From Nitrospirota bacterium (lineage in GTDB: Bacteria; Nitrospirota; Thermodesulfovibrionia; UBA6902), in contig JACQZE010000014.1 of assembly GCA_016207885.1 (NCBI GenBank), positions 25,724-89,723 of the forward strand: DNA of 64,000 bases, read 5' to 3'. The notes under the pieces are model-generated. The model was not told where the DNA came from. It saw nothing but the letters and a program-made list of their open reading frames with translations, and ran no database searches. A program made the position numbers and the translations under genes. Positions 35,390-64,000 of this stretch are shown in pieces (within the stretch, counting starts at the first letter, position 1; every line of letters starts with the position of its first letter).

Positions 35390-35430
35390 TAGCAGGATTG
35401 ATAACAAAGTAACATTAGATGTTAGTTTAT

Positions 35431-35461: not shown

Positions 35462-35464
35462 ATT

Positions 35465-35477
35465 TTAACTGCTTGAC
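35465..35477 (+). promoter_or_regulatory. Weaker TTAG-N4-TTGAC-like motif (ttaactgcttgac) with a TATAAT -10
   Basis: TTGACT (35473-35478), a 16-nt spacer, then TATAAT (35495-35500), upstream of the 35540 pilin. Confidence 0.5.
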
Positions 35478-35539
35478 TTTATATCATTTAATGCTATAAT
35501 TATTTTATTCAATATTATTTGTTAATAGGGCGGTAAATA

Positions 35540-38687: not shown

Positions 38688-38688
38688 T

Positions 38689-43780: not shown

Positions 43781-43848
43781 TCTGTCAGACGGCTGATATT
43801 GAGATTTAAAGACTTTAATATGCGATGTCATTTTTCAGGAGGTGTATT

Positions 43849-45375: not shown

Positions 45376-45423
45376 TCTTTGTGTTAACGGCATATAAAGG
45401 ACAAGAGTTTTAAGAGGTATTTC

Positions 45424-47301: not shown

Positions 47302-47313
47302 ATACTCCCCTTA

Positions 47314-47346
47314 TCTCCTCTCCCATGACGGGAGGGGAGATATTTC
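47314..47346 (+). terminator. Candidate intrinsic terminator after P3
   Basis: tctcctctccc / gggaggggaga 11-bp stem (one G-T pair), loop atgac, followed by tatttc. Confidence 0.45.
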
Positions 47347-47445
47347 GCAGTCTCTTGGAAAGAGCAGGTTCCACCTTTGACATGAACGGTCAATTTTGCT
47401 ATTCTTGCATTATAATCAGCTTGAAAGATAAGGCGGGAGAAGACT

Positions 47446-47694
47446 GTGTTACTCTTTATTGCATTTTTCCTCATAGGTTACGGCTTTTATTTATTAACGC
47501 ATATCCCTCCTGACGCTTCAGAAGAGATCATTGCCTTGATGGCGATGGCAGGGAAATTCGCCATTTTGATAGGGTGCGCAAAGGTGGCATTCTTTGCGTT
47601 GAGATACAAAACCCGTTCAACACATCTGACCCTGGTAGAGAGGATCAAGGCAAGGTTTACCAAAAATTTCGTTTCCAAGCGTGTAAAGCGGTGA
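47446..47694 (+). CDS. Small two-TM membrane protein (hypothetical)
   Basis: 82-aa ORF with a GTG start about 8 nt after GGGAGAAG, two hydrophobic helices and a basic tail. No family recognised. Confidence 0.3.
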   Translation: MLLFIAFFLIGYGFYLLTHIPPDASEEIIALMAMAGKFAILIGCAKVAFFALRYKTRSTHLTLVERIKARFTKNFVSKRVKR

Positions 47695-47762
47695 GATTCT
47701 GCTAAAATATAGACATGCAACAGGCCACACAGGCCGGTTAATGTATTATTCCTTGAGGAACC

Positions 47763-49043
47763 ATGCAGATAAGAGATAGAGAAAAAGGGTTCAGTCTGGT
47801 CGAGCTTGCTATCGTAATGATAATAATCGGGCTGCTCTTCGCATTAGGGCTTAAGATGCTGGGGCCCTTGGTGAACAGGCTGAAGCATACCGATACCAAA
47901 GAGACCATTAATGCCGCTTATGAAGCGGTAATAGGCTATGCCGCAACACATGATAAATTGCCTACAGTTGATGAATTCAAATCTATAGCTACGACTTCCA
48001 AGGATGTATGGGGAAACGATATTATATACAGGCCTGCTGATGAGCTTACAGTAGATGGTACTGTTTGTGCGAGAAGCACAACCAATTTATATGTTTGTGA
48101 TAAAGATGCGGGATGCGACACAGGTACGGATATAGATAATGTTGCCTTTTTTATTCTAAGCCGAGGAGCTAACTTAAATATCCAGACAGATGTTTTTGAT
48201 GTTGTTGATACTTCGGCTACATCGGCTACAATTCAAACGTATTCACGTGAGTATAATAATACTGATAATTCAGGTATTGACGATTTTTCCGGTTCCGCTG
48301 AGTGGCCTGACCCTGTCGGTACAAGATCCGAGCAATATAAAGATATTGTCAAGTGGATCACACTTTCTGACCTGAGGACAAAGGCAGGCTGTTTGGGCGC
48401 CGAGCTTAAGATCAGCACTACTTCACTTAATGCGTGTGATAATAACTTGCCATACAGTTCAACTGTCTTTGCCGACGGCGGGATACAGTTTGCAGACAGT
48501 GCAGATGCCGGCACTGCCCCTGAATATAAATGGTGCAGGGAGCAGAGCGGTGATTCAGGCCTCATATTTACCCCTGATCCTTTGAGTGTTAATTGTGCAA
48601 GTGAAAGTGAGGCTTTCTATTCCCAGTCTGACAGCATTGTCATATCAGGACGGCCTAATAGCGCGCCTGACTCTTATAAACTCACATTCTATGTAAGGGA
48701 TAATAACGATCCTGTATTAAATGGCCGTGATAAGATTGTAAATAAATCATTTGTGCTCTCAATCGCTCCGGACTGTACCTCTCAGGATGTTGTAAATGCG
48801 ACTGGAAGTAACTCCAGATTTAAGATTGACAGCGGTTCCTGTATATCATGGCCGGATAGTGATATTATGAATATCAGCTACGGGCAAACTGCCCAAATAT
48901 ATGGCGAATCCGGTTGCAGTGGAACGCCATGTGATATAACATATAATGATATTTCCGCTATAGATACTAATGGTGACGGTATTACTGATATGGCTGCCTG
49001 GACTGCCGGCGCCCCCCCCACCTGTACCTTTGTAGAGCATTGA
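47763..49043 (+). CDS. Giant modular prepilin-like protein P4
   Basis: 426 aa with MQIRDREKG|FSLVELAIVMIIIGLLFA and a GAGGAA RBS. Shared module motifs are DVWGNDIIY, CARSTTN, AFFILSRGANLNIQTD, GIDDF and QYKDIVKWITLSDLRTKAGC. The C-terminal Cys-framed module resembles the last module of P3. Confidence 0.75.
   Translation: MQIRDREKGFSLVELAIVMIIIGLLFALGLKMLGPLVNRLKHTDTKETINAAYEAVIGYAATHDKLPTVDEFKSIATTSKDVWGNDIIYRPADELTVDGTVCARSTTNLYVCDKDAGCDTGTDIDNVAFFILSRGANLNIQTDVFDVVDTSATSATIQTYSREYNNTDNSGIDDFSGSAEWPDPVGTRSEQYKDIVKWITLSDLRTKAGCLGAELKISTTSLNACDNNLPYSSTVFADGGIQFADSADAGTAPEYKWCREQSGDSGLIFTPDPLSVNCASESEAFYSQSDSIVISGRPNSAPDSYKLTFYVRDNNDPVLNGRDKIVNKSFVLSIAPDCTSQDVVNATGSNSRFKIDSGSCISWPDSDIMNISYGQTAQIYGESGCSGTPCDITYNDISAIDTNGDGITDMAAWTAGAPPTCTFVEH
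49012..49019 (+). repeat. C8 homopolymer near the 3' end of P4 (codons APP)
   Basis: gcccccccca read directly at 49011-49020. Confidence 0.95.
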
Positions 49044-49109
49044 TGTTTTGTTGTTTTCGGTATTGCCTGCCCTGTAATAAAAAGTAAAATAATCCCGGAT
49101 GTCTAATTC

Positions 49110-49122
49110 TTAGACAATTGCA
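49110..49122 (+). promoter_or_regulatory. TTAG-N4-TTG motif, copy 4 (attcttagacaattgca)
   Basis: Shares ATTCTTAGACA.TTG with copy 2. TATTAT (49141-49146) lies 18 nt downstream, about 250 nt upstream of P5. Confidence 0.45.
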
Positions 49123-49311
49123 CCCTTCCTATTAATCAGTTATTATGAAGTTGTAAATAGGGTTATTTCACCCATGAATATAAGGGATAATACTGAGATA
49201 TTTGATCTGAGATAAACAAAAAGCCCATTGGTTTATAAAAGAAACATATATTTTAAAGCAGGTTAGATTATTTTGCTGAAACATATTTCAAAATAAGCAA
49301 ATTGCTTTATT

Positions 49312-49327
49312 TGGTATGGGATTTGCA
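49312..49327 (+). promoter_or_regulatory. Candidate sigma-54 (-24/-12) promoter upstream of P5
   Basis: TGGTATGGGATTTGCA matches TGGCACG-N4-TTGCA in spacing, with GG and GC both in place. It ends 69 nt before the P5 ATG. Confidence 0.35.
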
Positions 49328-49395
49328 TATCTGTTAATAACATAGTTGTTACATCAATAACAAATGACATTTGATAAGGTAAATAGGAGGTTATT

Positions 49396-50850
49396 ATGGA
49401 TACTTTAAAAAAAGAGAAAGGATTTTCACTTGTTGAACTGGCAATAGTCTTTGTCGTTATGGGTGTGCTTCTGGCTGTCGGTATAAAGATGCTGGCTCCG
49501 ATGCTCGGCAGGGCAAAACTGAATGAGACCGATAAGATAGTTCAGGCAGCAGTGGACTCGATAGTAGGCCACGTTGCGATAGAGCATGAGTTTCCTGATG
49601 ACTTCAAAACAGTTGTGACAACTTCTGAAGATATCTGGGGGAATGATCTTATCTTCCGTGCCGCTAATATGAATCCAATTGATATCTGCAACCAGAGTAC
49701 AACTGATATGTCAGCAACAAACTGTTTCAATCCTGACTGTTCTAATAACGTCATAATTCCAAATGTTGCCCTTGTTGTATTCAGTAAAGGTGAGGACTTA
49801 AATAAGCAGACTGATGAGGCGGATGTCAAGGTTTATCCTAAGGGCACGGTTATTGGGACTCCCCCTAATACTGAGATTTATGATGACGTTGTCAAATGGG
49901 TATCTCTCAATGAACTCAGGGTAAGGGCGGGCTGTTCCGGCGCTCCTCTTAAGATACTTAATAATGAGCTTCCGTTGTGCGGGCAGAACATCTCAGGCGA
50001 TTCCACTTATAAGGCAACCATATATGCAGACGGCGGGGTAGGAAGTTATAAATGGTGCAGGCAGGAAAGCTCCTCTACAGGTTTATTATTTACTCCTAAT
50101 TTTTCTTCATCAGATTGCACGTCTGAGCCTGTGGATAACTGGATGGAGGCTAATAGCCTTACGATCGATGCAACGCCTGTTATTGTGCAGGGCTCTTTTA
50201 ATATTACATTTTTTGTCCGTGACGATGAAGGCAATGTGGCATCCAAATCATTAGTCACAACACTTGATCCTAAATGTTCACCAACGGTTATTATTGCTGA
50301 GACAGCTGAAAATCTTGAGGAAGCTGAGGGTACGCCTGATGTATATGTCTGCCACCAGACATGCACGACTTCATGTGAAACTGTAGCTCACACATGCCCG
50401 TCTGATAACTCTAATAGCAACGGCAACGGCAATATGAATGGCAACTCTTCTGGCTGGGATAGCAATTCCAACTCTAACTCTAACGCCAATGGCAACGGTA
50501 ATGAAAATGGCAACTCTAACTTAAATGCCAATGACAACGGCGCCTGGGGTTATGACGGCTGTGTAGAGTGGACTGAAGAAGTGTGTGCTGCCCCTGTTTG
50601 TACTTCAGGTGATCTGCAGATTGATGTAGCTGATCTTGCGGAACATATGGGACATGGCGATACACTCGGCGCATGTGATTCAGGTATTGTAGATATTGAC
50701 GGCGATAGTGACAACGACAATTATAGCGATAAAGATGAATACGACTGTGGCAGCGATAAAGACAATTCAAACAGTGCACCGCCTGATAGCGACAAAGACG
50801 GATGGTGTGACGGCAAAGACGCATATGACAATGACAACAGCCGTCATTAA
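49396..50850 (+). CDS. Giant modular prepilin-like protein P5 (Asn/Ser-rich tract plus Asp-rich calcium-binding-type tail)
   Basis: 484 aa with MDTLKKEKG|FSLVELAIVFVVMGVLLA and a TAGGAGG RBS. Shared module motifs are DIWGNDLIF, CNQSTTD, VALVVFSKGEDLNKQTD and IYDDVVKWVSLNELRVRAGC. The C-terminal sequence is DIDGDSDNDNYSDKDEYDCGSDKD...DSDKDGWCDGKDAYDND. Confidence 0.75.
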   Translation: MDTLKKEKGFSLVELAIVFVVMGVLLAVGIKMLAPMLGRAKLNETDKIVQAAVDSIVGHVAIEHEFPDDFKTVVTTSEDIWGNDLIFRAANMNPIDICNQSTTDMSATNCFNPDCSNNVIIPNVALVVFSKGEDLNKQTDEADVKVYPKGTVIGTPPNTEIYDDVVKWVSLNELRVRAGCSGAPLKILNNELPLCGQNISGDSTYKATIYADGGVGSYKWCRQESSSTGLLFTPNFSSSDCTSEPVDNWMEANSLTIDATPVIVQGSFNITFFVRDDEGNVASKSLVTTLDPKCSPTVIIAETAENLEEAEGTPDVYVCHQTCTTSCETVAHTCPSDNSNSNGNGNMNGNSSGWDSNSNSNSNANGNGNENGNSNLNANDNGAWGYDGCVEWTEEVCAAPVCTSGDLQIDVADLAEHMGHGDTLGACDSGIVDIDGDSDNDNYSDKDEYDCGSDKDNSNSAPPDSDKDGWCDGKDAYDNDNSRH

Positions 50851-50960: not shown

Positions 50961-53786
50961 ATGTCTAAAACCTCAAACAGGCCTGATATCCTTGTCATTG
51001 GAATAACGCTATTCCTCTCCGGCTTCTGCGGCATCTCCTACGAGGTTATCTACTCCCGTATGCTCGGGAATCTGATAGGCGACCATTTCATCGTCAACGC
51101 GTCGCTTCTGCTCACATTTCTCCTCGGCATCGGCATCGGGACAAAGCTGGCTCACAGGATATCACGCTTCCTTTGGGCGGTTGAGATCTGTATCGGTTTT
51201 TATGCCATAGGCTTTACTTTATTAACGCCGTATCTCGAGGCATTTCTTTATAATATTCTGCCTGCCGGTTCCATCGCTATGAGCATTCTGGCATCAAGTG
51301 TCCTTCTTGCGATCCCTGCCTGCCTCGTCGGTGTGAGCCTGCCTTTGTTCTCTGCATACCTGAAGCGCCTTCGCAAAGGAAATGTCTTTGCGACAACTTA
51401 TATGATCTACAACTTTGGCGCGGCTATAACCGCCATAGTGATAGAGTTCTATCTCATCAGACATCTCGGCATAAGGAACACGGCATTCTTGATAGGAGAG
51501 TTCAATCTGCTCATAGGCCTTGCGCTCTTTCTGAGGCGCAGGCACATCGTCCCGGAGATTGTAAGCGTCAAAGAGGTGGTATATCCTCTGAGAGTGATCC
51601 TGCCACTGATAATCCTGAGCATAGCGAGCGCTGTGTTTCAGCTTCTGGGGCTTAAGATTGCGGAGTTTCTCTTCGGCCCGTTCAATGAGACCTTTGCAAT
51701 GGTGCTTGGGGTGGTCTTGTTCGGCATCGCTTTCGGCACATTGCTCGGCCGGATGCTCGATATAAGTTTTGCATCGCTTCTTTTCTTCAATCTGCTGTAT
51801 CTGACCTTGCTGATACCCGGCTTTTCTTATTTTGTGAAATTGTATGCCGATTATTTCAGCGTGTTCAACCCATTCTCTCCTCTTCTCTGGAAGGTAACGA
51901 TACTCTTTCTGATAATGGGGCCAAGCGCGATATGTTTCGGCGCTGCAATTCCTTCACTTATGAAACAGGAGGAGAATGTTGCAAAGGAGTCGGGGCATCT
52001 GCTCTTTGTTTCGAGCCTTGCCAATGCCGCAGGGTATCTTTTGATGGTGCTCTTCATACACCCTAATTTTGAGTACGGGCAGATAATCGTTCTGATAATC
52101 TTTATGCTGTCAACCGCCTTTTTCATTATAAAATGGCAGGCTAAAAAGGCTGTGGCAATTGTTTGCGTGGCGGCTGTTGCAGGGGTCTTTCTGCTTCATG
52201 CCTTCTGGAATGAGGACATCCTGTATCTCGATTACCTCTCCTTCACCTCTAAAGACAGGTATGCAAAAGAGCTCAAGTCCTATGAAAGCGGGAAGAGGTT
52301 TAAGAAATATGATGAAACCTTTGCGATTAATAAAATAAACGGGCAGGAACTTTTCTTTATAAATGGTTTCACCAGTATCGCGCTCAATACTGCGGCTGAA
52401 TATATAGTCGGGGTGCTCTCAAGCCTCCCGTCACCTTCAACCGAGAGCGCGATGGTGCTCGGCCTCGGAAGCGGGGCTACCGCAGGAACGGTCAGCCGGA
52501 TATTCGACCATCTTGATGTGGTGGAGATAAGCCCTATCATAATTGAGAAGCAGATGCTGTTGAGCAAACATAATTTTGATATTGCTTCAAGGAAGAATGT
52601 CAATATTATAAGCGATGACGGGATAAGGTATACAAAGATCACTGACAGGAAATATGACCTTATACTTAATACAGTTACCTCTCCGCTCTACTTCAGCTCA
52701 AGCAAGCTCTACACAGTTGATTTTTTCCGGGATGTCAAGTCAAAGCTGAAAGATGGAGGGATATACACAACATGGCTTGATTCGAGGGTGGGTAATGACG
52801 GGACGGATATAATTCTGAAGAGCCTGCGCTCTGAGTTCAAGTACTGCTGGGTGGCGATAATGAGGCCGTCATATTTTCTGCTTCTCTGTTCGGATGAACC
52901 GCTGCAACTGCGTCAGGAGGATAATATCTCCTCAAATAAAGGGCTTAAGGATTTCTTCCTGCGAGAGCACAGTATTGATATAAAGACATTGAGGTATGCT
53001 TTTGTTTCTGCGAATGCCTTTGATCATATCTCTGCCGGTTCAAAGGTTCCCCTTAACTCGCTTGACCATCCTGAGCTTGAATTTGAGATATCAAGGCTGA
53101 AGCGCCGCGGCATTCAAAAATTTGTGGACAGCCTGATTAATAATTATTCTGCGGAGAAGGCCGAAAGGGATATCTTTACCGGATTGCCTATTGACTGGTA
53201 TAGCCTGGTCACCTATTATTATCAGATCAACCGTGAATTTCCTTACAGCAAGAGTTTCTTTAAGATGGCAGAGAAACATGTTGAAGGGTTTAAGGATAAA
53301 TTCCCGGAGCACTTTCTTTCAAGCTATCGCGCTGCGGCTTCCGAGTTTCCGTCATCAGACAGAAAAAACAGCCTGGGGAAATGGCTCATTAGTTATGATA
53401 TGTACGCTGAGGCAGAGGCTGTGCTCAGAGAGATACTTAAAGATGACCCCGGCTACCATTATATAAGGTACAAAATTGCCAAAGCAGTTTACTGGCAGGA
53501 GAGGTACGATGAAGCCGAGCTGCTCTTCAATGAAGAACTTAAGACCCATCCGGATGCTGCTGACGCTATGTATTGGCTGGGCCTGACCTATTACAAGCAG
53601 AAAGCCTATGCTGACGCAGTCAAGTGGTTCAGAAAATGTCTTGAGAAAGACCCGCAGTTCGACAATGCCAATTACTATGCCGGGCTTGCGAGTATGGGAG
53701 TTGGAGAGATGGATGATGCGAAGGTTTTCTTTAAAAAAGAGCTGATAGTGGATCCTGAAGACAAGAAGCCTCTAAAATTTCTTTAG
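50961..53786 (+). CDS. Polytopic membrane protein fused to a spermidine-synthase-like (SAM/aminopropyl-transferase fold) domain and C-terminal TPRs
   Basis: 941 aa with about 430 aa of TM helices. The next region reads VLGLGSGATAGTV...LDVVEISPIIIE...ISDDGIRY...YDLILNTVTSP...DGGIYTTW, a spermidine-synthase-type motif order. The C-terminus has TPR repeats (WLGLTYYKQKAYADAVKWFRKCLEKDP). Confidence 0.65.
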   Translation: MSKTSNRPDILVIGITLFLSGFCGISYEVIYSRMLGNLIGDHFIVNASLLLTFLLGIGIGTKLAHRISRFLWAVEICIGFYAIGFTLLTPYLEAFLYNILPAGSIAMSILASSVLLAIPACLVGVSLPLFSAYLKRLRKGNVFATTYMIYNFGAAITAIVIEFYLIRHLGIRNTAFLIGEFNLLIGLALFLRRRHIVPEIVSVKEVVYPLRVILPLIILSIASAVFQLLGLKIAEFLFGPFNETFAMVLGVVLFGIAFGTLLGRMLDISFASLLFFNLLYLTLLIPGFSYFVKLYADYFSVFNPFSPLLWKVTILFLIMGPSAICFGAAIPSLMKQEENVAKESGHLLFVSSLANAAGYLLMVLFIHPNFEYGQIIVLIIFMLSTAFFIIKWQAKKAVAIVCVAAVAGVFLLHAFWNEDILYLDYLSFTSKDRYAKELKSYESGKRFKKYDETFAINKINGQELFFINGFTSIALNTAAEYIVGVLSSLPSPSTESAMVLGLGSGATAGTVSRIFDHLDVVEISPIIIEKQMLLSKHNFDIASRKNVNIISDDGIRYTKITDRKYDLILNTVTSPLYFSSSKLYTVDFFRDVKSKLKDGGIYTTWLDSRVGNDGTDIILKSLRSEFKYCWVAIMRPSYFLLLCSDEPLQLRQEDNISSNKGLKDFFLREHSIDIKTLRYAFVSANAFDHISAGSKVPLNSLDHPELEFEISRLKRRGIQKFVDSLINNYSAEKAERDIFTGLPIDWYSLVTYYYQINREFPYSKSFFKMAEKHVEGFKDKFPEHFLSSYRAAASEFPSSDRKNSLGKWLISYDMYAEAEAVLREILKDDPGYHYIRYKIAKAVYWQERYDEAELLFNEELKTHPDAADAMYWLGLTYYKQKAYADAVKWFRKCLEKDPQFDNANYYAGLASMGVGEMDDAKVFFKKELIVDPEDKKPLKFL

Positions 53787-53831
53787 CCTGCTTCAAATTC
53801 CGGGAAGTGCTGTTATAATAACATTCATATT

Positions 53832-55331
53832 ATGGAGACAAAAAACTGGTATACGAAGAGAGATTTTTTTAAAGAGGTGCCGTTTTTTATCAAGGCGTTA
53901 TTCTTTTTTATCATTACATTCTATATCTTTTTTTATATCCAGTTCTCAGTCCCGTGGCTTGTAGGTTATGACGGCTTCTTTCACATCAAATACAGCGCTA
54001 TCCTTGCAGAAAAAGGGTTTATAGATAAGCTTCCCTGGCTTCAATATACTATCCACAAAGACGCGTACAGGGATCATCATCTGCTGTTCCACTATCTTGT
54101 AGTCCCGTTCACATATGGGAACCCTATGATCGGAGGCAAGTATGCCACAGTGCTCTTTGCATCGTTCATGGGGCTTGCCCTGTATATCCTCTTAAATTCT
54201 GCCGGAGTACGGTTGCCCTCATTGTGGAGCTTTGCCGCTATCATGTCGTCACATCCCTTTCTCTTCAGGATGTCGCTATTGAGGGTACAGAGCCTGTCGC
54301 TTGCAGCCTTACTCCTGATATTCCTTTTCTGTATGAAGAGGCAATACCTGATGATATATATCAGCTCCGTAATCTTTGTCTGGCTTTATGACGCATTCCC
54401 TCTTCTCATCATCTTTTCGCTTGTTTTCATTCTTTCAGGGTGGCTTGTAGAGAAAAGGCCGGATATTAAGATATTCCATATGACGCTTCTGGGGATAGTG
54501 ACAGGCCTTGTCGTAAACCCTTACTTTCCCGGCAATGTAACTTCAATTATCTATAATATCTCACGCACATTCCTTGAAAATCCTTCAGGAATACAGCTTG
54601 GAAGCGAATGGAAGCCTTATCAGACGTGGGATTTCGTCAGAAACTCGCTCCCTGTCTTTCTGGTATTCCCGCTGACTATCCTTTTCCTGCCTCTGGTAAA
54701 GAAAATTAAACGTGAGGAGTATGCTTCTGTCTGTCTCAGCCTGCTCTTTCTTTTTATGACTCTCAAGTCAAGGCGGTTTGTCGAATACTGGCCTGTCTTT
54801 GCATTTCTTTCCGCGTCTCTTGTGGTCGGGCGCAGGGTCTCATGGCAGTTTATTCTTGCAGGGTTTATTCTATTACTGCCTTTAATGAACTTTAATTTCA
54901 AAGAGGCTGTCAGCGAAAGCAGTACATCCACAAGCCCTGAGAGCTATTTAGGCTCGGCAAAGTGGCTCGAGAAGAACACCTCAGCGGGTGACATAGTATT
55001 TAATGCCGACTGGGATGACTTCCCGTTCCTCTTTTACTACAATGCTAAAAATTATTACATAGTGGGGCTGGATCCCATGTATCTCTATTCATATGACAAG
55101 GATAAATCAGCTCTCTACAGGAAGATAACAAAGGGGCAGAAGGATGAGACGGGTAAACTTATCATGGAGGAGTTTAACTCAAGGTATGTCTTTCTCGATA
55201 GAGACCATGATTCCTTATATGAAAGACTTTCAGAGGATCCCCTCGCAAAAAAGGTATTTGAGGACTCCGGTGGATATGTATTTAAGCTGTCTCCGGAAAA
55301 AGATGAGCCTCAAACTAAGCAGAAAAATTAG
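53832..55331 (+). CDS. Polytopic membrane protein with a C-terminal soluble domain, possible GT-C-type glycosyltransferase
   Basis: 499 aa, about 10 TM helices, with YDGFFH in the first predicted loop. The architecture parallels the next gene. No firm family motif recognised. Confidence 0.4.
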   Translation: METKNWYTKRDFFKEVPFFIKALFFFIITFYIFFYIQFSVPWLVGYDGFFHIKYSAILAEKGFIDKLPWLQYTIHKDAYRDHHLLFHYLVVPFTYGNPMIGGKYATVLFASFMGLALYILLNSAGVRLPSLWSFAAIMSSHPFLFRMSLLRVQSLSLAALLLIFLFCMKRQYLMIYISSVIFVWLYDAFPLLIIFSLVFILSGWLVEKRPDIKIFHMTLLGIVTGLVVNPYFPGNVTSIIYNISRTFLENPSGIQLGSEWKPYQTWDFVRNSLPVFLVFPLTILFLPLVKKIKREEYASVCLSLLFLFMTLKSRRFVEYWPVFAFLSASLVVGRRVSWQFILAGFILLLPLMNFNFKEAVSESSTSTSPESYLGSAKWLEKNTSAGDIVFNADWDDFPFLFYYNAKNYYIVGLDPMYLYSYDKDKSALYRKITKGQKDETGKLIMEEFNSRYVFLDRDHDSLYERLSEDPLAKKVFEDSGGYVFKLSPEKDEPQTKQKN

Positions 55332-55378
55332 GTAGCAGGAAGAATTACTAATCTGAAAAATAGATCTGCCGTTTTTCT

Positions 55379-56914
55379 ATGAACAAAGATAAAAAAAACG
55401 ACTTTATTATTATTTCCTCTTTATTCCTGCTGGTGATCATTGTCAGGCTCCCGTCTTTCTTTTATTCAGTCTTTGACTGGGACGAAAGCACATTTATACT
55501 TATGGGGCAGAGCATCCTTGACGGCAATCTGCCGTATGTTGATGCATGGGTGATGAAACCACCCGGAGCATTCTATATTTACTCACTTTTCATCTATTTT
55601 TTTGGCAAGACTATTTTTGCGGTACGGCTGGGAGGAATACTCTTTATTTTTCTTGCTTCCGTACTCTTATATATGGCCGGGGAGGCGCTTTACAATAAGG
55701 CTTCAGGGGTTATTGCCGCGGTATTTCTTATAGTCTTTGTCAGCGCAAGAAAATGGGGATTGAGCACTATGATAGAGCACCTGATGCTTGTGCCTATCTC
55801 CCTTGTATTGTTTATCGTTTTAACCAGAAAACCTGATAATAAAATGGCCCTTGTGACCGGCCTGATACTTGGTACAGGGATACTGATGAGGCAGAATATG
55901 GCCTTTGACAGCGTGGCTGTTCTGGCAGTGTTTTTAACGGGCGTTACAATGCCGGGCACAGATATTTCAGGGCGTCTAAAAAGATGCGCCTTTCTTGTAT
56001 CAGGAATCGCTATCCCCCTGTCTGCAATGGTCTTTTATTACGCTTTAAACGGGGAACTTCAGCTTTTTTTAAATACCAATATATCATCGGTAGTTGCGCA
56101 TGTCAGCGAGAACGTATTGATATCCAGAAAGTTAAGATTGCTGTTTGTAAATATCAAGCATGAGTTTACAGGCGGCTATATGCTTTTCTGGATCTTTTTC
56201 GCGAACGCAATTTTGTTCCTGTTGTTTTCTCCGGGGAGCGGGGTTCTCAAGAGGCCTGCGGCTGCTATGCTGATAATCTTTTCTGCTCAGATATTTTCGA
56301 TCTTTTATACCGGGACTAATTTTGGTTATCACTATCTTATTATGGTCATACCTGTAACAGCTTTAGTCTGCGGGATCTCCATACCCTTGTGGCTCTCAAG
56401 CGAAGCGGGAAAAAGAAAGGCAGTAAAATTTGCTGCTGTTTTTCTTATTGCATCCGGACTTGTCTTGCCATTGCATAAAGAAATTTACCCTCTTTACAGT
56501 GATGTTTTTTCAAAAGTCATGCTTCGTGAACCGTTACAGGATGATACCTGCTATGAGATCGCTGAATATCTCAAAAAAGAGTATGTCAAAGGTAAATATA
56601 TTTATATGCTTAACAACTGTCATATAGTCTATTTTTTGACAGACAGTAAATACCCAACAAGGTATATTCATCCAACCGACATCATAAAATATGATTATAT
56701 GCTGAAGGCGGTAGACGGCACTGAAGCCACGGATGAGAAAGAACTGCAGAAGATACTCTTGAAAAATCCGGAATTTATCGTCTATAAGGATGGTAGCTGG
56801 CCGACTCCGGATGACAGCTTCAGGGAGATGCTTTTTATTGAGCTGGAGAAACAATACAGGTTGGTAAAGGTGATCAGTGATGATCATTCTATTTACAAGA
56901 GGAAGCGTTCTTAA
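55379..56914 (+). CDS. GT-C fold glycosyltransferase, ArnT/PMT_2 (GT39/GT83)-like
   Basis: 511 aa. The first loop reads FDWDESTFILMGQSILDGNLPYVDAWVMKPPG, typical of ArnT/PMT_2-type enzymes. It has multiple TM helices and a C-terminal soluble domain. Confidence 0.6.
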   Translation: MNKDKKNDFIIISSLFLLVIIVRLPSFFYSVFDWDESTFILMGQSILDGNLPYVDAWVMKPPGAFYIYSLFIYFFGKTIFAVRLGGILFIFLASVLLYMAGEALYNKASGVIAAVFLIVFVSARKWGLSTMIEHLMLVPISLVLFIVLTRKPDNKMALVTGLILGTGILMRQNMAFDSVAVLAVFLTGVTMPGTDISGRLKRCAFLVSGIAIPLSAMVFYYALNGELQLFLNTNISSVVAHVSENVLISRKLRLLFVNIKHEFTGGYMLFWIFFANAILFLLFSPGSGVLKRPAAAMLIIFSAQIFSIFYTGTNFGYHYLIMVIPVTALVCGISIPLWLSSEAGKRKAVKFAAVFLIASGLVLPLHKEIYPLYSDVFSKVMLREPLQDDTCYEIAEYLKKEYVKGKYIYMLNNCHIVYFLTDSKYPTRYIHPTDIIKYDYMLKAVDGTEATDEKELQKILLKNPEFIVYKDGSWPTPDDSFREMLFIELEKQYRLVKVISDDHSIYKRKRS

Positions 56915-57191: not shown

Positions 57192-58541
57192 ATGGGAAAA
57201 AATGTGATAGTCAGCTTTGAGGGAGACATTGTCAAGGTTGCCTATATCTCAACAAAGGGTAAGCAGATTGTTGTTAATGACGCCCTCACATGCAAGAAAG
57301 AGGATTTTGACAGCTTTCTCGAAAAAGAGAAGGCTAAAGAGTTTATAGTTGTAAATAACTTCAAAGACGCATTTCAGGACATATTTCTTATCCCGCCTGT
57401 AAAAGCCAAGTACGCGAAGAGCCTTATCGAATCCGAGATCAAACAGAAATCCCCTTTTGAGGACTTCACCTATACCTACAGGGTTGTTGGTGAAAAGCTT
57501 GAAGGGAACAGAAAGATGCAGGAAATATCGGTCTATGTTGTCAAGACTGAAGATGTAAAGAATATTACAGAGAGATTTATCGAGAAGGGTAAGCTGGTCA
57601 AGGCTGTTTTCCCTCATATCTATGCGGTTGCATCTGAAATGCATTTTGATGATGAGAGCGTTTTATGTGTATCTGAATCCGGACAGAGCAGGGTGCTTTT
57701 TTTAATAAAGAACGGCAAAATAGAGTTTGTCAGGTCTGTGCAGGCAAGTGAAAATGGTATAAGTGATGCTGATATACAGAGTATTAATGTAACCGTAAAC
57801 TACTGCAAACAGGTTCTTAAGGCCAGTCCCTCTTATATAGTCCTGGTAGGTAATCTTTGCGGAAATTATAATGCGACTACGCAGATAGATATCCCCATTG
57901 TATGCCCTCTTAAACCCAAAAACCTGAAAGTTCAAAATGATATCTATCTTGATTTTATTTTTGCCATATCAGCACGCAGCGCTTTAAAAGAAGCAAACGT
58001 CTCCCCTAAAGACTATAAGTCGTTTTATTCAACATGGAAATTATTCCAGTATTCTACTGTCGCCTTCATCATTATTTCACTCGCAGGCGGGCTCTATGCA
58101 AGTTACGGGATTTTTAATGTTTTGAGTTCAAGAGGGAAAATGAGCTCTTTAAAAAAAGAGATCACAGGCATGGATAAAAATACTTTAACCATGTATAACA
58201 AGAGAAAAACTGAATTTGAAAGCTATAAGGGATTTATTGAATCAAGCAGCAAGACTGCCGCAATGCCTGTAATTAAAAATTTTTTAACCTCCTTTGCTGA
58301 TGCAAATACGAAGAACGTAAGTATCGGCACCATTACTATGAAGATAAACGGCGACACACTGAATGTAAGCATTTCAGGGCTTGTAAATGAAGCTGAAGAT
58401 GATGGAAAAGAGGGTTTTCAGAAATACACCTATTATCAGGAGTTCATAGACTCGGTAACAAAGTTAAACGGTATCTCAATAATAAAACATGAGCTGACCC
58501 CCAAGCAGAGGGATTTCATAATTGAGCTGGAGTCTAAATGA
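57192..58541 (+). CDS. Fused PilM-PilN-like (MshI-like) pilus assembly protein
   Basis: 449 aa: a cytoplasmic region of about 290 aa, one TM (YSTVAFIIISLAGGLYASYGIF), and a periplasmic tail. It is first in an I-J-K-L(secretin) order. Confidence 0.5.
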   Translation: MGKNVIVSFEGDIVKVAYISTKGKQIVVNDALTCKKEDFDSFLEKEKAKEFIVVNNFKDAFQDIFLIPPVKAKYAKSLIESEIKQKSPFEDFTYTYRVVGEKLEGNRKMQEISVYVVKTEDVKNITERFIEKGKLVKAVFPHIYAVASEMHFDDESVLCVSESGQSRVLFLIKNGKIEFVRSVQASENGISDADIQSINVTVNYCKQVLKASPSYIVLVGNLCGNYNATTQIDIPIVCPLKPKNLKVQNDIYLDFIFAISARSALKEANVSPKDYKSFYSTWKLFQYSTVAFIIISLAGGLYASYGIFNVLSSRGKMSSLKKEITGMDKNTLTMYNKRKTEFESYKGFIESSSKTAAMPVIKNFLTSFADANTKNVSIGTITMKINGDTLNVSISGLVNEAEDDGKEGFQKYTYYQEFIDSVTKLNGISIIKHELTPKQRDFIIELESK

Positions 58542-59092
58542 TGTTTTACAATGAATTAAAAAAGGCGGTATTGAAGCACCTCATCGGAGGAATAGCATTT
58601 GCTGTTGTTCTTTTCGTGATCATATTTTCCGGCAGATATAGCGAGAGCCTGGTGAGCACAGTTAAACAGTTTGAGAAACAAAAGGAAAACTATAAGAAGA
58701 TGAGCGAGTCTGTGGCTGAGCTTGAGAAGGTAATGGGCCAGATAGACGCAATGGTACCGGCAGACTATTATGATAAGGGTAACCGTGAATTTATTCTTCT
58801 TGCCATCGGCAGTATAAAATCCAAACTGCGATATGCAGAAGTGAAGATAGAAGACTTCAGGGAAGAAGGCGGTGAAGTTTCAATGCCTATGGAGATTCAT
58901 TTTCCTGTCGACGACTATACGGTCATGACAGAAAGTATAGCGTATATTCAGTCCTTCAAGTTTCCTTATTTTATTTTTGATGGTATAGATGTTGCGAGAT
59001 CAAAAGACAACTCTGAGATAACCTGTAATATTAAGGGTTCAATGAGGATGCCTGCCGGAAGGTTAAGTAAACGTTCGGGTGAGAGTGAATAA
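58538..59092 (+). CDS. PilO/MshJ-like assembly protein
   Basis: 184 aa with an N-terminal TM, a coiled-coil segment and a globular tail. It overlaps the upstream gene by 4 bp. Confidence 0.45.
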   Translation: MMFYNELKKAVLKHLIGGIAFAVVLFVIIFSGRYSESLVSTVKQFEKQKENYKKMSESVAELEKVMGQIDAMVPADYYDKGNREFILLAIGSIKSKLRYAEVKIEDFREEGGEVSMPMEIHFPVDDYTVMTESIAYIQSFKFPYFIFDGIDVARSKDNSEITCNIKGSMRMPAGRLSKRSGESE

Positions 59093-59576
59093 TATGGGAT
59101 TTACCTTGAAATTAAAACTGCTGGCTCTTTTGCCTTTTATTTTAATAATTGCTGCGGGCTATGCGGCGTATAAGATCGATGTTGAGTATAAAATGACTCC
59201 GGAAGATAAGGAGATACTCGGGTTTGAGGTCACAAAAGTGAGCCTTCCTGAAAGAAAGGTAGTTACAGACAAGACTTTGGCAATGCCTACCTTGATTGAG
59301 AAAGTCATGGGTTACAGGGAGGCCGTTCCATCTGAAGAGGACAAGAAGAAGGCTTCTGAGCAGGTTCAGCTTGTTGTTACGATGATCATTGTCAGTGATA
59401 AAGGGAACATGGCAATAATAAACGGCACGGTGGTAAGGGAAGGGGATATCGTCGCCAATCAAACGATACTTCAGATAGAGGCCGACAAGATCTTAGTCGA
59501 ATATGCTTTAGCACCCGGGGATAAGGGCAAAACCAAGACTAACACTAAGGGGACAAAATGGGTAAATCTACTATGA
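59079..59576 (+). CDS. MshK/PilP/GspB-like small periplasmic assembly protein
   Basis: 165 aa with an N-terminal anchor and a C-terminal AIINGTVVREGDIV...ILQIEADKILVEY pattern, typical of this class. It lies immediately upstream of the secretin. Confidence 0.45.
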   Translation: MRVNNMGFTLKLKLLALLPFILIIAAGYAAYKIDVEYKMTPEDKEILGFEVTKVSLPERKVVTDKTLAMPTLIEKVMGYREAVPSEEDKKKASEQVQLVVTMIIVSDKGNMAIINGTVVREGDIVANQTILQIEADKILVEYALAPGDKGKTKTNTKGTKWVNLL

Positions 59577-61204
59577 AAACAATAAAAAGGGTGAAAATTA
59601 TGTATCGGCTTTTTTCCATGTTTCTAACATTGTTTTTATTAGCCTTTGCTGTTACAGGCCTTATAAATGAGGCATCAGCGGCGCAGAATGATGCTGCATC
59701 TGATGAAGCATCAGGCGTTCTTGTTTCAGAAGTTCCTGATGTGCGTATTGAAAAGGCGGACACAGTAAAGTTTGAGAAGGAAACCTCAAGGTCAAGCCTT
59801 GCGTTTACCCCGGTCACTGAGGAACTTTTGCCGCTTAAGACGAGGATCATTTCCATTTCAGTGAGAAATGCGCCGCTTAAAGATGTTCTTTTCGCAGTCG
59901 GTGAAAACACCGGGTTGAATATAATTATGGAAACCGGTGTAAACCCTGAACTGCCCATGACCATAACACTGAAGGAAGTTGCCGCTGATGAGGCTCTTGA
60001 TATTATATTCTCATCCCTTGATTATTTTTATGATCTGGAAGGCAATGTTCTCATAGTGAGAGTTATGGCCACGAGGATGTTTGAATTCGGCCATCCCAGT
60101 ATCTCACAGGAATATTCATCTGATGTCGGCGGAGATCTCTTCGGCGCGACTGAGGACATAAGCAACATAAAAGGCGGTGTTAAACAAAATATCAAAGCGG
60201 ATGGTGTAGCGTTAAACCTGTGGGATTCTCTGGAGTCAACGCTTAAAGGTATTGTTGGAACCGGTATGATTCCCGGTACGATTGATATAAATAGAATGTC
60301 AGGGACGATACTTGTAACCGCCACAAAGAAGAATATGATAAAAGTTGATAATTATCTTACTAAACTTAAGGAAGTCCTGGGCAGGCGCGTTCTTGTTGAG
60401 GCAAGGATAGTGGAGGTTACACTGGCAGATAATCTTAAGTACGGAATTAATTGGGCATTTCTTGATAATCTCAAGGGAGTCGGGCAGGTTGTTTCAGGCG
60501 CCATGAACTTTAATAACAAATTGGTTTCTGCTACAATTGACCCTTTAACAGGCGAAGCAGATTTCTCTTTGGATCCGGCACAAGATTCCGGTTTCTTTGT
60601 GGCTACATTAGGAAATGATTTTGCTGCTATTATTAGCGCTCTTGATGAGCAGGGTGACACGACAGTGCTGTCAAATCCGAGGCTCGGCATAATGAATGGA
60701 CAGACAGCCCTTCTGAATGTCGGAAGGAAGACCGATTATGTAAGCGAAGTTGATGCAACTACAACTGAGACTACTACTACTCCCCCAACTACAAAAACCA
60801 CATTTGATGTTACTACAAAGAGTATATTATCAGGAGTTATGCTGGGTATAGTCCCTAATATCAATGAGAATGGTGAGGTGACATTGACTATAACTCCGAT
60901 AGTTTCTGATCTTGTAGAATTACTTGAACAGCCTTTTGGCAGTACAAATACGGGTAGTGAATTTACAATATCTTTACCAGTTATCGACCTTAAGGAACTA
61001 AGCACAGTTGTCAAGGTCAGGGATGGCGAGATGATAGTGCTTGGCGGGCATATAGACAGAACCGAAGGAGTGGAGGATAAGCAGGTGCCGTTTCTCGGGG
61101 ATATTCCTTACTTGGGCTACCTGTTTAAACAGCATGCAAAGACCCATGAGAGCAAGGAGCTTGTGATACTTCTTAAAGCAACTGTGGATAAGGTAGGTTT
61201 GTAA
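59558..61204 (+). CDS. Secretin (MshL/PilQ type)
   Basis: 548 aa with a signal peptide. The secretin core is LSNPRLGIMNGQTALLNVG ... VPFLGDIPYLGYLFK ... ELVILLKATV. The true start is probably ATG 59573 or 59600. Confidence 0.85.
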   Translation: MGKSTMKTIKRVKIMYRLFSMFLTLFLLAFAVTGLINEASAAQNDAASDEASGVLVSEVPDVRIEKADTVKFEKETSRSSLAFTPVTEELLPLKTRIISISVRNAPLKDVLFAVGENTGLNIIMETGVNPELPMTITLKEVAADEALDIIFSSLDYFYDLEGNVLIVRVMATRMFEFGHPSISQEYSSDVGGDLFGATEDISNIKGGVKQNIKADGVALNLWDSLESTLKGIVGTGMIPGTIDINRMSGTILVTATKKNMIKVDNYLTKLKEVLGRRVLVEARIVEVTLADNLKYGINWAFLDNLKGVGQVVSGAMNFNNKLVSATIDPLTGEADFSLDPAQDSGFFVATLGNDFAAIISALDEQGDTTVLSNPRLGIMNGQTALLNVGRKTDYVSEVDATTTETTTTPPTTKTTFDVTTKSILSGVMLGIVPNINENGEVTLTITPIVSDLVELLEQPFGSTNTGSEFTISLPVIDLKELSTVVKVRDGEMIVLGGHIDRTEGVEDKQVPFLGDIPYLGYLFKQHAKTHESKELVILLKATVDKVGL

Positions 61205-61216
61205 AACGACTATAAT

Positions 61217-62869
61217 ATGCCTCCATTAAAACTTGGTGAACTATTACAGCAGAAAGGCCTTCTCAAAGACTCCCAGTTTAAAATAGCTCTAGCCGAGCAG
61301 GCTATAACAGGTGAGCGTCTGGGAGAGGCTATAATAACTCTTGGATTTGTATCATCTGCCGATATAGCCCAGTGTCTTGCTGAACAGGCAGGCATCCCCT
61401 TTCTCGATATCACCGGATATAACATCTCCGAGAATGTGCTGCGAATTGTGCATCGCGAGATGGCTCAGAATATGAGCTTTATTCCACTCAGTATCGATGA
61501 CGGTGTTCTTACCATAGGCATTACCGATCCTGAAAACCTCCATGCAATTGATAAAGCTGCAAACATCAGCAATAAACCGCCAAAGGTCTATATGGTAGAT
61601 ACAGACCTTTTTCAGGAGACGCTCGAAAAAGCATATTACTTTCTTGAGAACCCGATTCTTCAAGGTATATCCAGGTTGATAAACATATTGAGGCATGAAG
61701 TTTCTCCAGAAGGCAGTAATATATCGTCGCTTCTTGACTATGTTATGCAGGATGCTATCAGAAGAAATGCCAGCGATATTCATATTACCCCGTCACAGAA
61801 GACAATTCATGTTTACTACCGTATTGATGGTGTCCTTCAGTACGGCCATTGCCTGCCTCTAAATGTGCGGCAGGGGATCATTTCCAGGGTCAAGATTCTG
61901 GCAAAACTTGATATTGCCGAGCAGAGAGTTCCGCAGTTCGGGCTTTTTTCATTTACTTTTCTCAAGAGGGAATATAACATGCGTGTCTCTACTATCCCCA
62001 CTATTTATGGAGAGGACATCTCACTGAGGGTTCTGATAAGATCAGGATTTTTATTCAGAATAACTAATCTCGGTTATTATGAAGATGATGTTCAGAGGGT
62101 GAAGTCCCTTTTCTTAAAACCCCATGGCCTTATTATAGTTTCCGGGCCGACAGGGGGGGGGAAAACCACTACGCTTTTTGCCGCATTAAGGGAAATGGAT
62201 CTCATAGAAAAGAATGTCCTTTCTGTGGAGGATCAGATAGAATACAGACTGAGTATGATCAAGCAGACAGAGGTCTCGGAAAAGGTGGGATACACCTATG
62301 ACCTGGCAGGAAAAAGTTTTTTGAGGCATGACCCGGATGTCATCCTTGTTGGTGAGATAGTTGATGATGAGACGGCAAAAATGGCGGTTAGCGCATCCAG
62401 CACAGGCCATCTTGTTTTAAGCACTCTTCATACTAATGACGCCGCAAGCTCAATTCCAAGGCTATGCGGCTTCAACGTGGATAAAAATAATATTGCAGCA
62501 ACTTTGATCGCTGTCATAGGGCAGAGGCTCGTGAGAAAGATATGTAATAATTGTAAAACAAGCTACTCTTTGAAACCCGGGGAACTCAGCGCCATGGGTT
62601 TCCCCGATATTGAAGGAAAGATAACGACTGCTTTTAAAGGCTCCGGATGTTCTTTATGCAATAATTCGGGTTATATGGGCAGGACCCTGATTGGCGAGAT
62701 ACTTATCGTTGATGATGAAATGAAGGTGCTGATAAGTTCCGGGGCTGCGGTAACAGAGCTGAGAATTAAGGCAAAAGAGAATGGTTTAAAGACTATCAGG
62801 GACAATGGCATCAGAAAGGCTGAGGAAGGGATAACTACTTTTTCAGAAGTATTAAGGGTCACAGGTTAG
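61217..62869 (+). CDS. GspE/PilB/MshE-family secretion ATPase with an N-terminal MshEN (c-di-GMP-binding type) domain, paralogue 1
   Basis: 550 aa. Two 24-residue RLGxxLLxxGLLxxxxLxxxLxxQ-type motifs are separated by 5 residues (KLGELLQQKGLLKDSQFKIALAEQ-AITGE-RLGEAIITLGFVSSADIAQCLAEQ). Also present: Walker A GPTGGGKTT, a His box STLHTND, and a tetra-Cys CNNC...CSLC. Variant motifs are EDQIEY and GEIVDDET. Confidence 0.85.
   Translation: MPPLKLGELLQQKGLLKDSQFKIALAEQAITGERLGEAIITLGFVSSADIAQCLAEQAGIPFLDITGYNISENVLRIVHREMAQNMSFIPLSIDDGVLTIGITDPENLHAIDKAANISNKPPKVYMVDTDLFQETLEKAYYFLENPILQGISRLINILRHEVSPEGSNISSLLDYVMQDAIRRNASDIHITPSQKTIHVYYRIDGVLQYGHCLPLNVRQGIISRVKILAKLDIAEQRVPQFGLFSFTFLKREYNMRVSTIPTIYGEDISLRVLIRSGFLFRITNLGYYEDDVQRVKSLFLKPHGLIIVSGPTGGGKTTTLFAALREMDLIEKNVLSVEDQIEYRLSMIKQTEVSEKVGYTYDLAGKSFLRHDPDVILVGEIVDDETAKMAVSASSTGHLVLSTLHTNDAASSIPRLCGFNVDKNNIAATLIAVIGQRLVRKICNNCKTSYSLKPGELSAMGFPDIEGKITTAFKGSGCSLCNNSGYMGRTLIGEILIVDDEMKVLISSGAAVTELRIKAKENGLKTIRDNGIRKAEEGITTFSEVLRVTG
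62153..62161 (+). repeat. G9 homopolymer encoding the Gly triplet of the Walker A loop of ATPase 1
   Basis: ca-ggggggggg-aaaacc read directly. Codons are ACA GGG GGG GGG AAA ACC (TGGGKT). Confidence 0.95.
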
Positions 62870-62969
62870 TTAACATAAGATGCGATTATTTTTTTCTCTT
62901 TTTGAAGCCAGACAAGCTGTTTTCAATATCATCAGAATTTATTATTTCTTCTAAAGGCCTAAAGATAAT

Positions 62970-64000
62970 ATGCCGCCATTAAGACTTGGAGAACTTTTAC
63001 AGCAGAAAGGTCTCGTTAAGGAATCACATGTTAAGATAGCGCTGGCAGAGCAGGCTATTACCGGCCATCTTATCGGGCTTATACTCGTAAAGCTGAGCTT
63101 TGTCTCTTCGAAAGATATTACTCAGACCCTTGCTGAACAGGCCGGGATGACCTTTCTGGATCTTACCCAGTACAATATACCTGAGGATGTTTTGCGCCTT
63201 GTGCCTCGGGACGTTGCCTCCAAGCTTGGCTTTGTGCCTGTCAAAATTGAAGATGGCGTGATAACTATAGGTATCTCAGCTTCTGAAAATTTGCGCGCTG
63301 TTGACGCGGCTACAAGGATCGGGGGACACCCTCCCAAGATATTGATGGTTGACGGCTCTATAGTTGAGGCGACACTTGAGAAGGCATTTTATTTTCTTGA
63401 GAACCCCATACTTGAGGGCATTGAAAAGATCGTCGAGAGCGTTAAGACCGGTGAACTTACCGGCACAAAAGTGTCTCAACTTACAGACTTTCTGGTAAAA
63501 GATGCCATCAGAAGAAAATGTACTGATATTCATGTAACGCCTACTCCTGAAACCGTGCATGTTTTTTTTCGTATAGACGGTGTGTTGCAACAGGCGCACT
63601 GCCTGCCTAAAATTGTGCATAACGGCATTATTTCCCGGATAAAGATATTGTCTAAGCTTGATATAGCTGAAACAAGGGTGCCCCAGGACGGCTCCTTCTC
63701 ATTCACATTTCTTAACTCAAGATATGATATGCGTGTTTCCACAATGCCTACCATTTACGGCGAGAACCTTGTCATAAGGATACTGGGTAGCGGCGGCGCG
63801 ATACTCAGGCTGGCTTCACTTGGTTTTGATAAAGAGGATACGGAAAAGCTGAGGCGCTTATTTTTAAAGCCATATGGAATGATACTTATATGCGGGGCAA
63901 CCGGAAGCGGTAAGACCACTACGCTATATGCCGCTTTAAGGGAGATAGACCTGATAGAGAAGAATGTGCTTACTGTTGAAGACCCTGTAGAATACAGGCT
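62970..64000 (+). CDS. GspE/PilB/MshE-family secretion ATPase, paralogue 2 (3' end beyond the window)
   Basis: My translation from ATG 62970 reads MPPLRLGELLQQKGLVKESHVKIALAEQAITGHLIGLILVKLSFVSS... It is colinear with paralogue 1, with Walker A GATGSGKTT and a canonical EDPVEY. It is open to the window end, so it is absent from the ORF track. Confidence 0.85.
   Translation, partial: MPPLRLGELLQQKGLVKESHVKIALAEQAITGHLIGLILVKLSFVSSKDITQTLAEQAGMTFLDLTQYNIPEDVLRLVPRDVASKLGFVPVKIEDGVITIGISASENLRAVDAATRIGGHPPKILMVDGSIVEATLEKAFYFLENPILEGIEKIVESVKTGELTGTKVSQLTDFLVKDAIRRKCTDIHVTPTPETVHVFFRIDGVLQQAHCLPKIVHNGIISRIKILSKLDIAETRVPQDGSFSFTFLNSRYDMRVSTMPTIYGENLVIRILGSGGAILRLASLGFDKEDTEKLRRLFLKPYGMILICGATGSGKTTTLYAALREIDLIEKNVLTVEDPVEYR

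Follow-up and report, generated by a model that had tools for sequence, protein, structure and literature searches.

Tandem MshE-type ATPase paralogues with unevenly distributed changes in a type IV pilus cluster of groundwater Thermodesulfovibrionia

Two GspE/PilB-type ATPase genes, here called E1 and E2, lie in tandem on the + strand at the 3' end of a 64,000-nucleotide (nt) window, the whole stretch of DNA analysed here (contig JACQZE010000014.1, positions 25,724 to 89,723, Nitrospirota bacterium assembly GCA_016207885.1). The upstream, diverged copy E1 (61217..62869) encodes a 550 aa protein, while the downstream, conservative copy E2 (62970..64000) has 343 of its 548 codons inside the window; the full E2 protein is represented by P0303 (548 aa), a member of the 90% identity cluster of the best E2 match, the first 343 residues of which are those of the window's E2. 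Both genes are located downstream of a gene for a 548 aa MshL-type secretin (59558..61204, +; Pfam Secretin, E=7e-37), which passes the NCBIfam model TIGR02519 pilus_MshL with 264.1 bits against a cutoff of 250.2. The original prediction, made from the sequence alone, described two full-length, colinear paralogous open reading frames, and this is borne out: Pfam MshEN and T2SSE domains are found in both, the two sequences run colinear from residue 1 at 59% identity, and every motif that had been quoted is present where it was placed. The T2SSE profile (PF00437) matches E1 over residues 168-547 with E=1.1e-110 and the visible part of E2 with E=2.2e-51, and E1 matches PilF in the PDB with E=4e-128. 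Neither protein reaches the cutoff of the PilB equivalog model (TIGR02538; E1 464.7, E2 485.1, cutoff 675.65), of the GspE equivalog model (TIGR02533; 434.6 and 467.1, cutoff 630.25) or of the PilT/PilU model (TIGR01420; 149.7 and 174.8, cutoff 319.1), and both have the MshEN N-terminal domain. Their genomic context is of the MshE type, with an MshL secretin gene alongside and, in relatives, platform and MshM/N-like genes.

The gene order of the cluster is I-J-K-MshL secretin-E-platform-MshM/N. Gene I (57192..58541, +, 449 aa) stands at the start, in an MshI/PilM-like position; it has no Pfam or NCBIfam match, is syntenic and 71% identical in contig L002, and is also present in the single-copy relatives L003 and L004. 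Gene J (58538..59092, +, 184 aa) overlaps its neighbours and keeps its position in L002, L082 and L085, and the likewise syntenic gene K (59079..59576, +, 165 aa) contains a weak T2SSB-like stretch (Pfam PF16537, E=1.8e-4, under the curated cutoff). The 64 kb window contains no platform gene, and a search of metagenome contigs by exact DNA match gave no match that would extend it. In L002, L084 and L085, E2 is followed on its 3' side by a GspF-like platform gene and then by an AAA+TPR (MshM/N-like) gene, and the relatives have a single platform gene downstream of E2. The MshM/N-like gene encodes a protein of ~495 aa in which an MshM-like AAA ATPase is fused to an MshN/YbgF-like TPR domain (L085 12864-14342, L002 12867-14366, L084 5070-6554); its top NCBIfam match, an XrtA/PEP-CTERM-associated ATPase, stays under that model's cutoff. 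The junction from the secretin through E1 to E2 is not an assembly artefact, because a Logan contig from an independent run covers 60800-63493 with zero differences and the same E1-E2 order recurs in other contigs. Matching sequence was found in DNA metagenomes only, the source being a groundwater metagenome, and the nearest named relatives are metagenome-assembled genomes (MAGs) of Thermodesulfovibrionia/Nitrospirota.

E1 and E2 are separated by a T-rich spacer of 100 nt (62870..62969, +), the sole sizeable gap of the cluster, as the remaining genes overlap or abut. The spacer measures 87-113 nt in five contigs (also L002 9914-10000, L082 5181-5280, L083 3283-3395, L084 2106-2206) and is partly conserved. 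A c-di-GMP (cyclic diguanylate) riboswitch was considered for this spacer and dropped, an Rfam search of 61000-64000 returning no match at E<=1, and a scan of the spacer for promoters and terminators stayed at chance level.

Within E1, a 53-residue c-di-GMP motif pair (61229..61387, +; KLG...Q, spacer AITGE, RLG...Q; model NF053729) is followed by RVPQFGL (61925..61945), with Phe for the Asp of the family's PQDG; a Walker A GPTGGGKT (62144..62167), with Gly for Ser and the Lys kept; an Asp box EDQIEY (62228..62245), with Gln for Pro and the Mg-coordinating Glu kept; GEIVD (62351..62365), at the start of pore loop 1, with the catalytic Glu kept and the Arg replaced; a canonical His box TGHLVLSTLH (62402..62431); and an intact tetracysteine zinc motif CNNC...CSLC (62543..62659). 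E1 thus retains K316, E342, E380, H398 and H405, and is not a dead pseudo-ATPase of the kind that lacks the Walker A Lys and/or the catalytic Glu; the invariant residues that did change in it are all peripheral. E2 has its own motif pair (62982..63140, +; NF053729), with RLG...Q, the spacer AITGH and LIG...Q (LIG...KLSFV in motif 2), and Ser43 (63096-63098) replaces the turn glycine. Its Walker A is GATGSGKT (63894..63917), and the Ala that stands for Pro is present in all E2, the Pro being 100% conserved in the background family; each copy has therefore kept the Walker A Lys and changed one other family-invariant position. The E2 Asp box is EDPVEY (63978..63995), canonical as had been read. 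Beyond the window, P0303 is canonical at all its motifs (GATGSGKT, EDPVEY, DPDVILLGEIRD, TGHLVLSTLH and CSKC...CADC), so the second paralogue is not equally degenerate in its downstream half, an outcome that could have overturned the original prediction. Its Walker B sequence DPDVILLGEIRD agrees in full with GE[IMV]RD, while E1 has the Gly and the catalytic Glu but Val for Arg. One E2 orthologue, P0002 (L002 10001-11647, Nitrospirae MAG JACQZG01), reads GATGSCKT, with Cys for the conserved Gly before the Walker A Lys; this may be a genuine change in an otherwise frozen copy, or else a mistake of sequencing or assembly.

The E1-E2 pair occurs in at least seven independent contigs of groundwater Thermodesulfovibrionia, the order being the same beyond the window in L002, L082, L083, L084, L085 and L086. 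Relatives with the same cluster have a single E gene (L003, Dissulfurispiraceae; L004, Nitrospiraceae; L087, which encodes P0008). A search of 5.8 billion proteins yielded only 10 E1 clusters at 90% identity, the next match being P0008 at 60%. Neighbour-joining with 200 bootstraps gives 100% support each to E1, to E2 and to the group that unites both with P0008. E2 lies closer than E1 both to the single-copy P0008 (distances of 0.43 and 0.55) and to the background family (0.592 and 0.715). The duplication is thus young and narrow, a tandem copying of a single MshE-type gene in one small lineage of groundwater Thermodesulfovibrionia. Gene conversion between the copies was considered and found unconvincing, as E1-E2 identity rises mildly in the first 90 nt and in two genomes only. 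Separately, the searches brought up proteins of ~1000 aa that carry two complete GspE-like ATPase cores in one chain, in at least 14 clusters at 50% identity (P0122-P0131, P0134, P0137, P0138 and P0142; one named Candidatus Paceibacterota). GEIRD is present in most of their halves, and the N-terminal half of P0128 lacks the Walker A Lys and the Asp-box Glu.

The E1 sequences fall into two types, each with 100% bootstrap support. Type A, which includes the window's E1, has GGGKT, PQ[F/L/V]G and GEI[V/I]D, while type B has GAGKT, PQDG, GEITD, an Asp box that ends in Ser, and Lys for a finger Arg. When the window is compared with L085, a block inside E1 (61300..62850, +) drops to 48-78% DNA identity with L085 8330-9880, against 85-97% on both sides, and it ends sharply at the E1 stop codon. 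The E1 cores of these two contigs are 64.5% identical with a synonymous divergence (dS) of 2.17, while E2 is 97% identical and dS elsewhere ranges overall from 0.33 to 0.50 (E2 0.33, secretin 0.44, gene I 0.33). The same pattern of E1-core divergence is seen between L082 and the window. The core types are discordant with the genome tree, the N-domain shows no A/B split, and none of the 149 variable columns of E2 co-varies with the E1 type. Either the ATPase module of E1 has been swapped by recombination, or two old alleles have been maintained. What is new here is that the E1 ATPase core exists as two ancient types exchanged between close relatives.

The two copies have diverged unevenly along their length. 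Conservation among 112 other family members reaches at least 93% in 145 alignment columns (family-conserved positions), of which 21 are altered in most E1 sequences and 9 in most E2 sequences. The MshEN domain holds 20 of these columns (altered: 1 in E1, 5 in E2) and N2D plus the C-terminal domain (CTD) the other 125 (20 in E1, 4 in E2), a reciprocal distribution by domain (Fisher's exact p=0.0046). Fourteen of the 20 altered ATPase columns of E1 lie in the CTD core (p=0.008 vs E2). Across four genomes, identity of the CTD core is 97% for E2 and 70% for E1, and that of the C-terminal half of MshEN is 64% and 71%, respectively. Within one E1 type, the nonsynonymous divergence (dN) of the N-domain is lower in E1 than in E2 in 4/4 pairs, while core dN is equal to or above that of E2. 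Nevertheless, E1 is under purifying selection, with dN/dS of 0.06-0.16 overall and 0.07-0.13 within type. Complementary degeneration of the two copies had been proposed; the reciprocal pattern is there, while "degenerate" overstates the case for an E1 core that is constrained within each type. An E1 in decay, as a non-functional duplicate, would account for several lineage-specific substitutions at catalytic-site positions that are otherwise invariant. This is scarcely tenable, as the selection data largely refute it: the 550-codon frame is intact in 10/10 E1 clusters, dN/dS is low, and the E1 N-domain is better conserved than that of E2.

The most distinctive change in E1 concerns the arginine of GEIRD. 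Among 150 diverse sequences, each representing a 50%-identity cluster, all 146 Walker B motif matches have this residue, as do two sets of closer relatives (112/112 and 41/41); it is gone from 10/10 E1 clusters, where V, I or T takes its place. GEIVD is therefore not a common variant of the family, since all other members examined have the Arg, and it departs from a usually invariant GEIRD just as had been noted. By its +66 offset from the Walker A Lys, this position presumably corresponds to Arg-336 of EpsE, which Patrick et al. (2011) reportedly mutated with loss of activity. The second variant that had been singled out, EDQIEY, is rare in a narrower sense: the Asp-box Pro is kept in 298/298 motif matches in other family members, but EDQIEY itself appears in just 2/10 E1 clusters, the window's and one other. 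Around these sites, the Walker A Ser is 99% conserved in the background family (G or A in ~4% of diverse representatives) and is Gly or Ala throughout E1 (S314G/A), where the helix after Walker B is also changed. PQDG is found in 122/126 motif matches among diverse representatives, with F, L or V at the Asp in type A E1. Different E1 lineages have further changes at invariant sites, namely EDQIEY, Asp-box Y to S, and finger Arg to Lys.

The structural meaning of these sites can be read from Geobacter metallireducens PilB (PilB_Gm; PDB 5TSG/5TSH), which is ~37% identical over its full length (E=6e-111) and whose catalytic residues map one to one, even though both paralogues stay under the PilB equivalog cutoff. 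In PilB_Gm, E395 is the catalytic Glu, E357 coordinates Mg, D398/E400 belong to pore loop 1, and R271/R286 are arginine fingers (PMC5424180). E1 keeps K316 (=K331), E342 (=E357), E380 (=E395) and H405 (=H420), and the window's type also keeps both fingers, R256 (=R271) and R271 (=R286). It differs in V382, at the position of R397 between the catalytic Glu and pore loop 1, and in F241, the counterpart of D255 at the PQDG Asp. This last site is equivalent to CpaF D215, which stabilises the trans finger R347 (PMC12019362), and E1 keeps the trans Arg of LR[QH]DPD, the counterpart of R347. An equation of the GEIRD Arg with the CpaF trans finger was considered and rejected, as R347 matches the LR[QH]DPD Arg. 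In DotB, the helix after Walker B touches the Walker A/P-loop of the adjacent subunit (PMC6153414). E1 had been described as catalytically weakened; in favour of this the GEIRD Arg is gone from every cluster, while the Walker A Lys, Asp-box Glu, catalytic Glu, His box, fingers and zinc cysteines are all kept. "Altered" is a safer word than "degenerate", because the catalytic residues are retained and selection is purifying within type. E1 catalysis may be altered or reduced, and the protein is best described as a remodelled ATPase, probably slower or differently coupled, and not dead.

E1 could have been turned from an extension ATPase into an antagonistic motor, a retraction motor or brake that fills the role of PilT, since the window and the cluster contain no PilT-like gene, retraction motors are believed to derive from a duplicated bifunctional ancestor (PMC6711533), and pore loop 1 and the inter-subunit nucleotide sensors, at which E1 has changed, set direction in the PilB/PilT model (PMC5424180). 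However, E1 keeps the N1/MshEN domain and the zinc motif, both lacking in PilT, scores 149.7 against the PilT cutoff of 319.1, and aligns without gaps that would indicate an insertion like the pore-loop-3 extension of PilT. We find this origin of an opposing motor rather unlikely.

At the N-terminal end, both proteins pass NF053729 (the 53-residue double motif; cutoff 38 bits), E1 with 52.4 and E2 with 46.9, the latter above the score of the single-copy relative P0008. The E1 motifs had been called near-perfect: motif 2 does follow the published pattern, apart from position 17, where Ile stands for Leu, while position 7 of motif 1 is non-hydrophobic in both copies and throughout the family. 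The consensus has since been widened to (R/K/L)LG, and the E1 pair fits this extended form, (R/K/L)LG... (PMC11731258). The second motif of E2 had been called degraded, which is a weak claim. The loss of its first Arg is no sign of decay, as members of this family typically have Leu there (DLLG/DLIG); GSPII-B of Thermus PilF, which has a Leu there (L196), binds c-di-GMP at 6 nM, and L196R binds 4-fold weaker (PMC11731258). The top PDB match of the E2 motif region is this same GSPII-B domain, with L34 aligned to L196. In MshE, changes of charged residues shift affinity <5-fold, while G11 and G40 are critical (PMC5013675), and E2 keeps both of the matching glycines. The loss that does stand is G43S, found in all E2 and in no E1; the turn position is non-Gly in 15/88 diverse relatives. 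Other E2-specific deviations of the N-domain amount to three changes in its C-terminal subdomain only. Thus, the E2 N-domain appears somewhat less constrained and "degraded" is unjustified. Since PilF GSPII-A did not regain binding when its consensus was restored (PMC12002112), motif reading cannot decide c-di-GMP binding, and either copy may bind the ligand.

The original prediction had gone on to a subfunctionalisation into a sensing and a catalytic subunit. The asymmetry, the Arg loss in E1 and the canonical catalytic motifs of E2 agree with this, but the loss of sensing in E2 and the degeneracy of E1 were both overstated. In its strictest version, E1 would be a crippled c-di-GMP sensor and E2 a non-sensing catalytic subunit, obliged to assemble as mixed hexamers. 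The reciprocal changes at conserved sites, with G43S in all E2 and the Arg gone in all E1, are what it would predict, and duplication of a ring protomer gives mixed rings by default (PMC6711533). It is at odds with the NF053729 score of E2, above that of a single-copy relative, with the motif 2 Leu that E2 shares with the 6 nM binder PilF GSPII-B, with the non-Gly turn in 15/88 diverse relatives, with the catalytic Glu, Walker A Lys, Asp-box Glu and His box that E1 retains, and with the lack of co-variation between E2 and the E1 type. We regard such an obligate division as quite improbable.

The wider locus offers another use for two ATPases. Upstream of the assembly genes, the window encodes three tandem pilins of ~215 aa with class III signal peptides (33893-36190), three tandem PglL/O-antigen-ligase-like proteins that are candidate pilin glycosylases (36918-42266), and three pilin-like proteins of 420-484 aa (42518-50850); pilus-system components of the locus thus come in threes as well as in twos. 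Just 5' of the assembly genes (50961-56914) lie a 941 aa protein with a spermine-synthase-like domain and TPR repeats, and two membrane proteins of ~500 aa, one of them PMT_2 glycosyltransferase-like according to the L085 annotation; all three are conserved in L085. E1 and E2 could be two independent, fully active extension motors that serve different pilin sets through a shared platform and secretin, as the three ~215 aa pilins, the three 420-484 aa pilin-like proteins, the three PglL-like ligases and the complete motif sets of both ATPases would allow. Yet there is one platform gene and one secretin, the same cluster is present in single-copy relatives, and substrate specialisation does not predict a change in E1 at a site beside the catalytic Glu that is invariant in ~300 relatives. 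A pair of independent motors is therefore an unlikely candidate.

We favour a reading in which E2 would be an extension motor of the ancestral type and E1 an accessory partner maintained by selection, its c-di-GMP domain intact, its pore loop and the periphery of its active site retuned, and its platform that of E2; we put the chances of this reading at about even. Its starting point is the tandem duplication of the one MshE-type ATPase gene that served for assembly in an MSHA-like type IV pilus cluster. E2 would have kept the ancestral motor function and is most likely the main extension ATPase, because its catalytic core is almost frozen and its catalytic motifs are all canonical. E1 is a functional gene maintained by selection, and its product is predicted to bind and probably to hydrolyse ATP. 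The changes of E1 surround the nucleotide site and affect the interface between subunits and pore loop 1: the GEIRD Arg is lost, the Walker A Ser is replaced by Gly or Ala, and the window's E1 type has also lost the PQDG Asp, by which the trans arginine finger is positioned. It would then work as an accessory or regulatory partner with slowed or retuned ATPase coupling on the same platform protein as E2. This role is suggested because the c-di-GMP-binding N-domain is the best-conserved part of E1; the two copies may meet in mixed or in separate rings.

Several points weigh against this reading. None of the residues at which mutations are known to abolish activity has been lost from E1, which may be fully active, and our literature search gave no role for the GEIRD Arg, the work on PilB, CpaF, BfpD and DotB treating other arginines. 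The best-studied paralogue pair, PilT and PilU, forms separate homohexamers (PMC6821130), and the lack of E2 co-variation with the E1 type argues weakly against a tightly co-adapted mixed ring. Finally, the branching order of P0008, E1 and E2 is not resolved by the tree, so that the duplication may be older, with one copy lost in the P0008 lineage. A bolder form of the idea, which we offer as speculation and consider fairly unlikely to be right, is that E1 is a c-di-GMP-sensing, attenuated partner of E2 in a mixed or second ring, and as such the first regulatory paralogue found in nature for a pilus extension ATPase, with the two recombining core alleles of ancient origin under balancing or diversifying selection, for instance from phage proteins that target PilB-type motors. 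A two-allele pattern is unusual in a cytoplasmic ATPase and suggests that selection may come from outside the cell.

As a rule, the motor that extends a pilus is a homohexamer encoded by a single-copy gene. The architecture of the pair is that of Vibrio cholerae MshE (PDB 5HTL): an MshEN domain, in which a 5-residue spacer separates two 24-residue motifs, is followed by N2D, the ATPase core and a zinc motif. The cluster likewise encodes an MshL-type secretin, a platform protein that is GspF-like and an AAA-TPR protein that resembles MshM/N. In contrast, MshE is encoded by a single gene, while here two tandem copies directly follow the secretin, with MshM/N as a fusion further downstream. The GEIRD Arg is missing from E1, and E2 has Leu and Ser where MshE has Arg38 and Gly47. 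The best structural match of both N-domains is GSPII-B of Thermus thermophilus PilF (PDB 8PDK and others), the motifs of which start with Lys (motif 1, like E1) and Leu (motif 2, like E2) and which binds at 6 nM without the arginines. PilF has three GSPII domains per chain in a single-copy motor, whereas each of the two paralogues has one, that of E2 with the additional turn Ser. Among adjacent PilT-like paralogues that divide their tasks, the nearest parallel is PilT/PilU, likewise neighbouring ATPases of one machine, in which catalytically dead PilT still lets PilU work (PMC6821130). These are, however, retraction motors without N1 that form separate homohexamers, while both proteins described here are of the extension type.

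Altogether, the pair bears on how c-di-GMP regulates extension motors and on how retraction or accessory motors originate by duplication. It represents a young and clean natural experiment, in which one copy is frozen and the changes of the other are confined to the surroundings of the nucleotide site, of pore loop 1 and of the interface between subunits, and it could reveal whether extension motors occur in mixed or paired form. It also points to residues worth mutating in MshE, PilB and GspE, among them an Arg that is invariant in hundreds of relatives. The main value of the pair lies in singling out this invariant arginine and in the unusual two-allele pattern of the E1 core.

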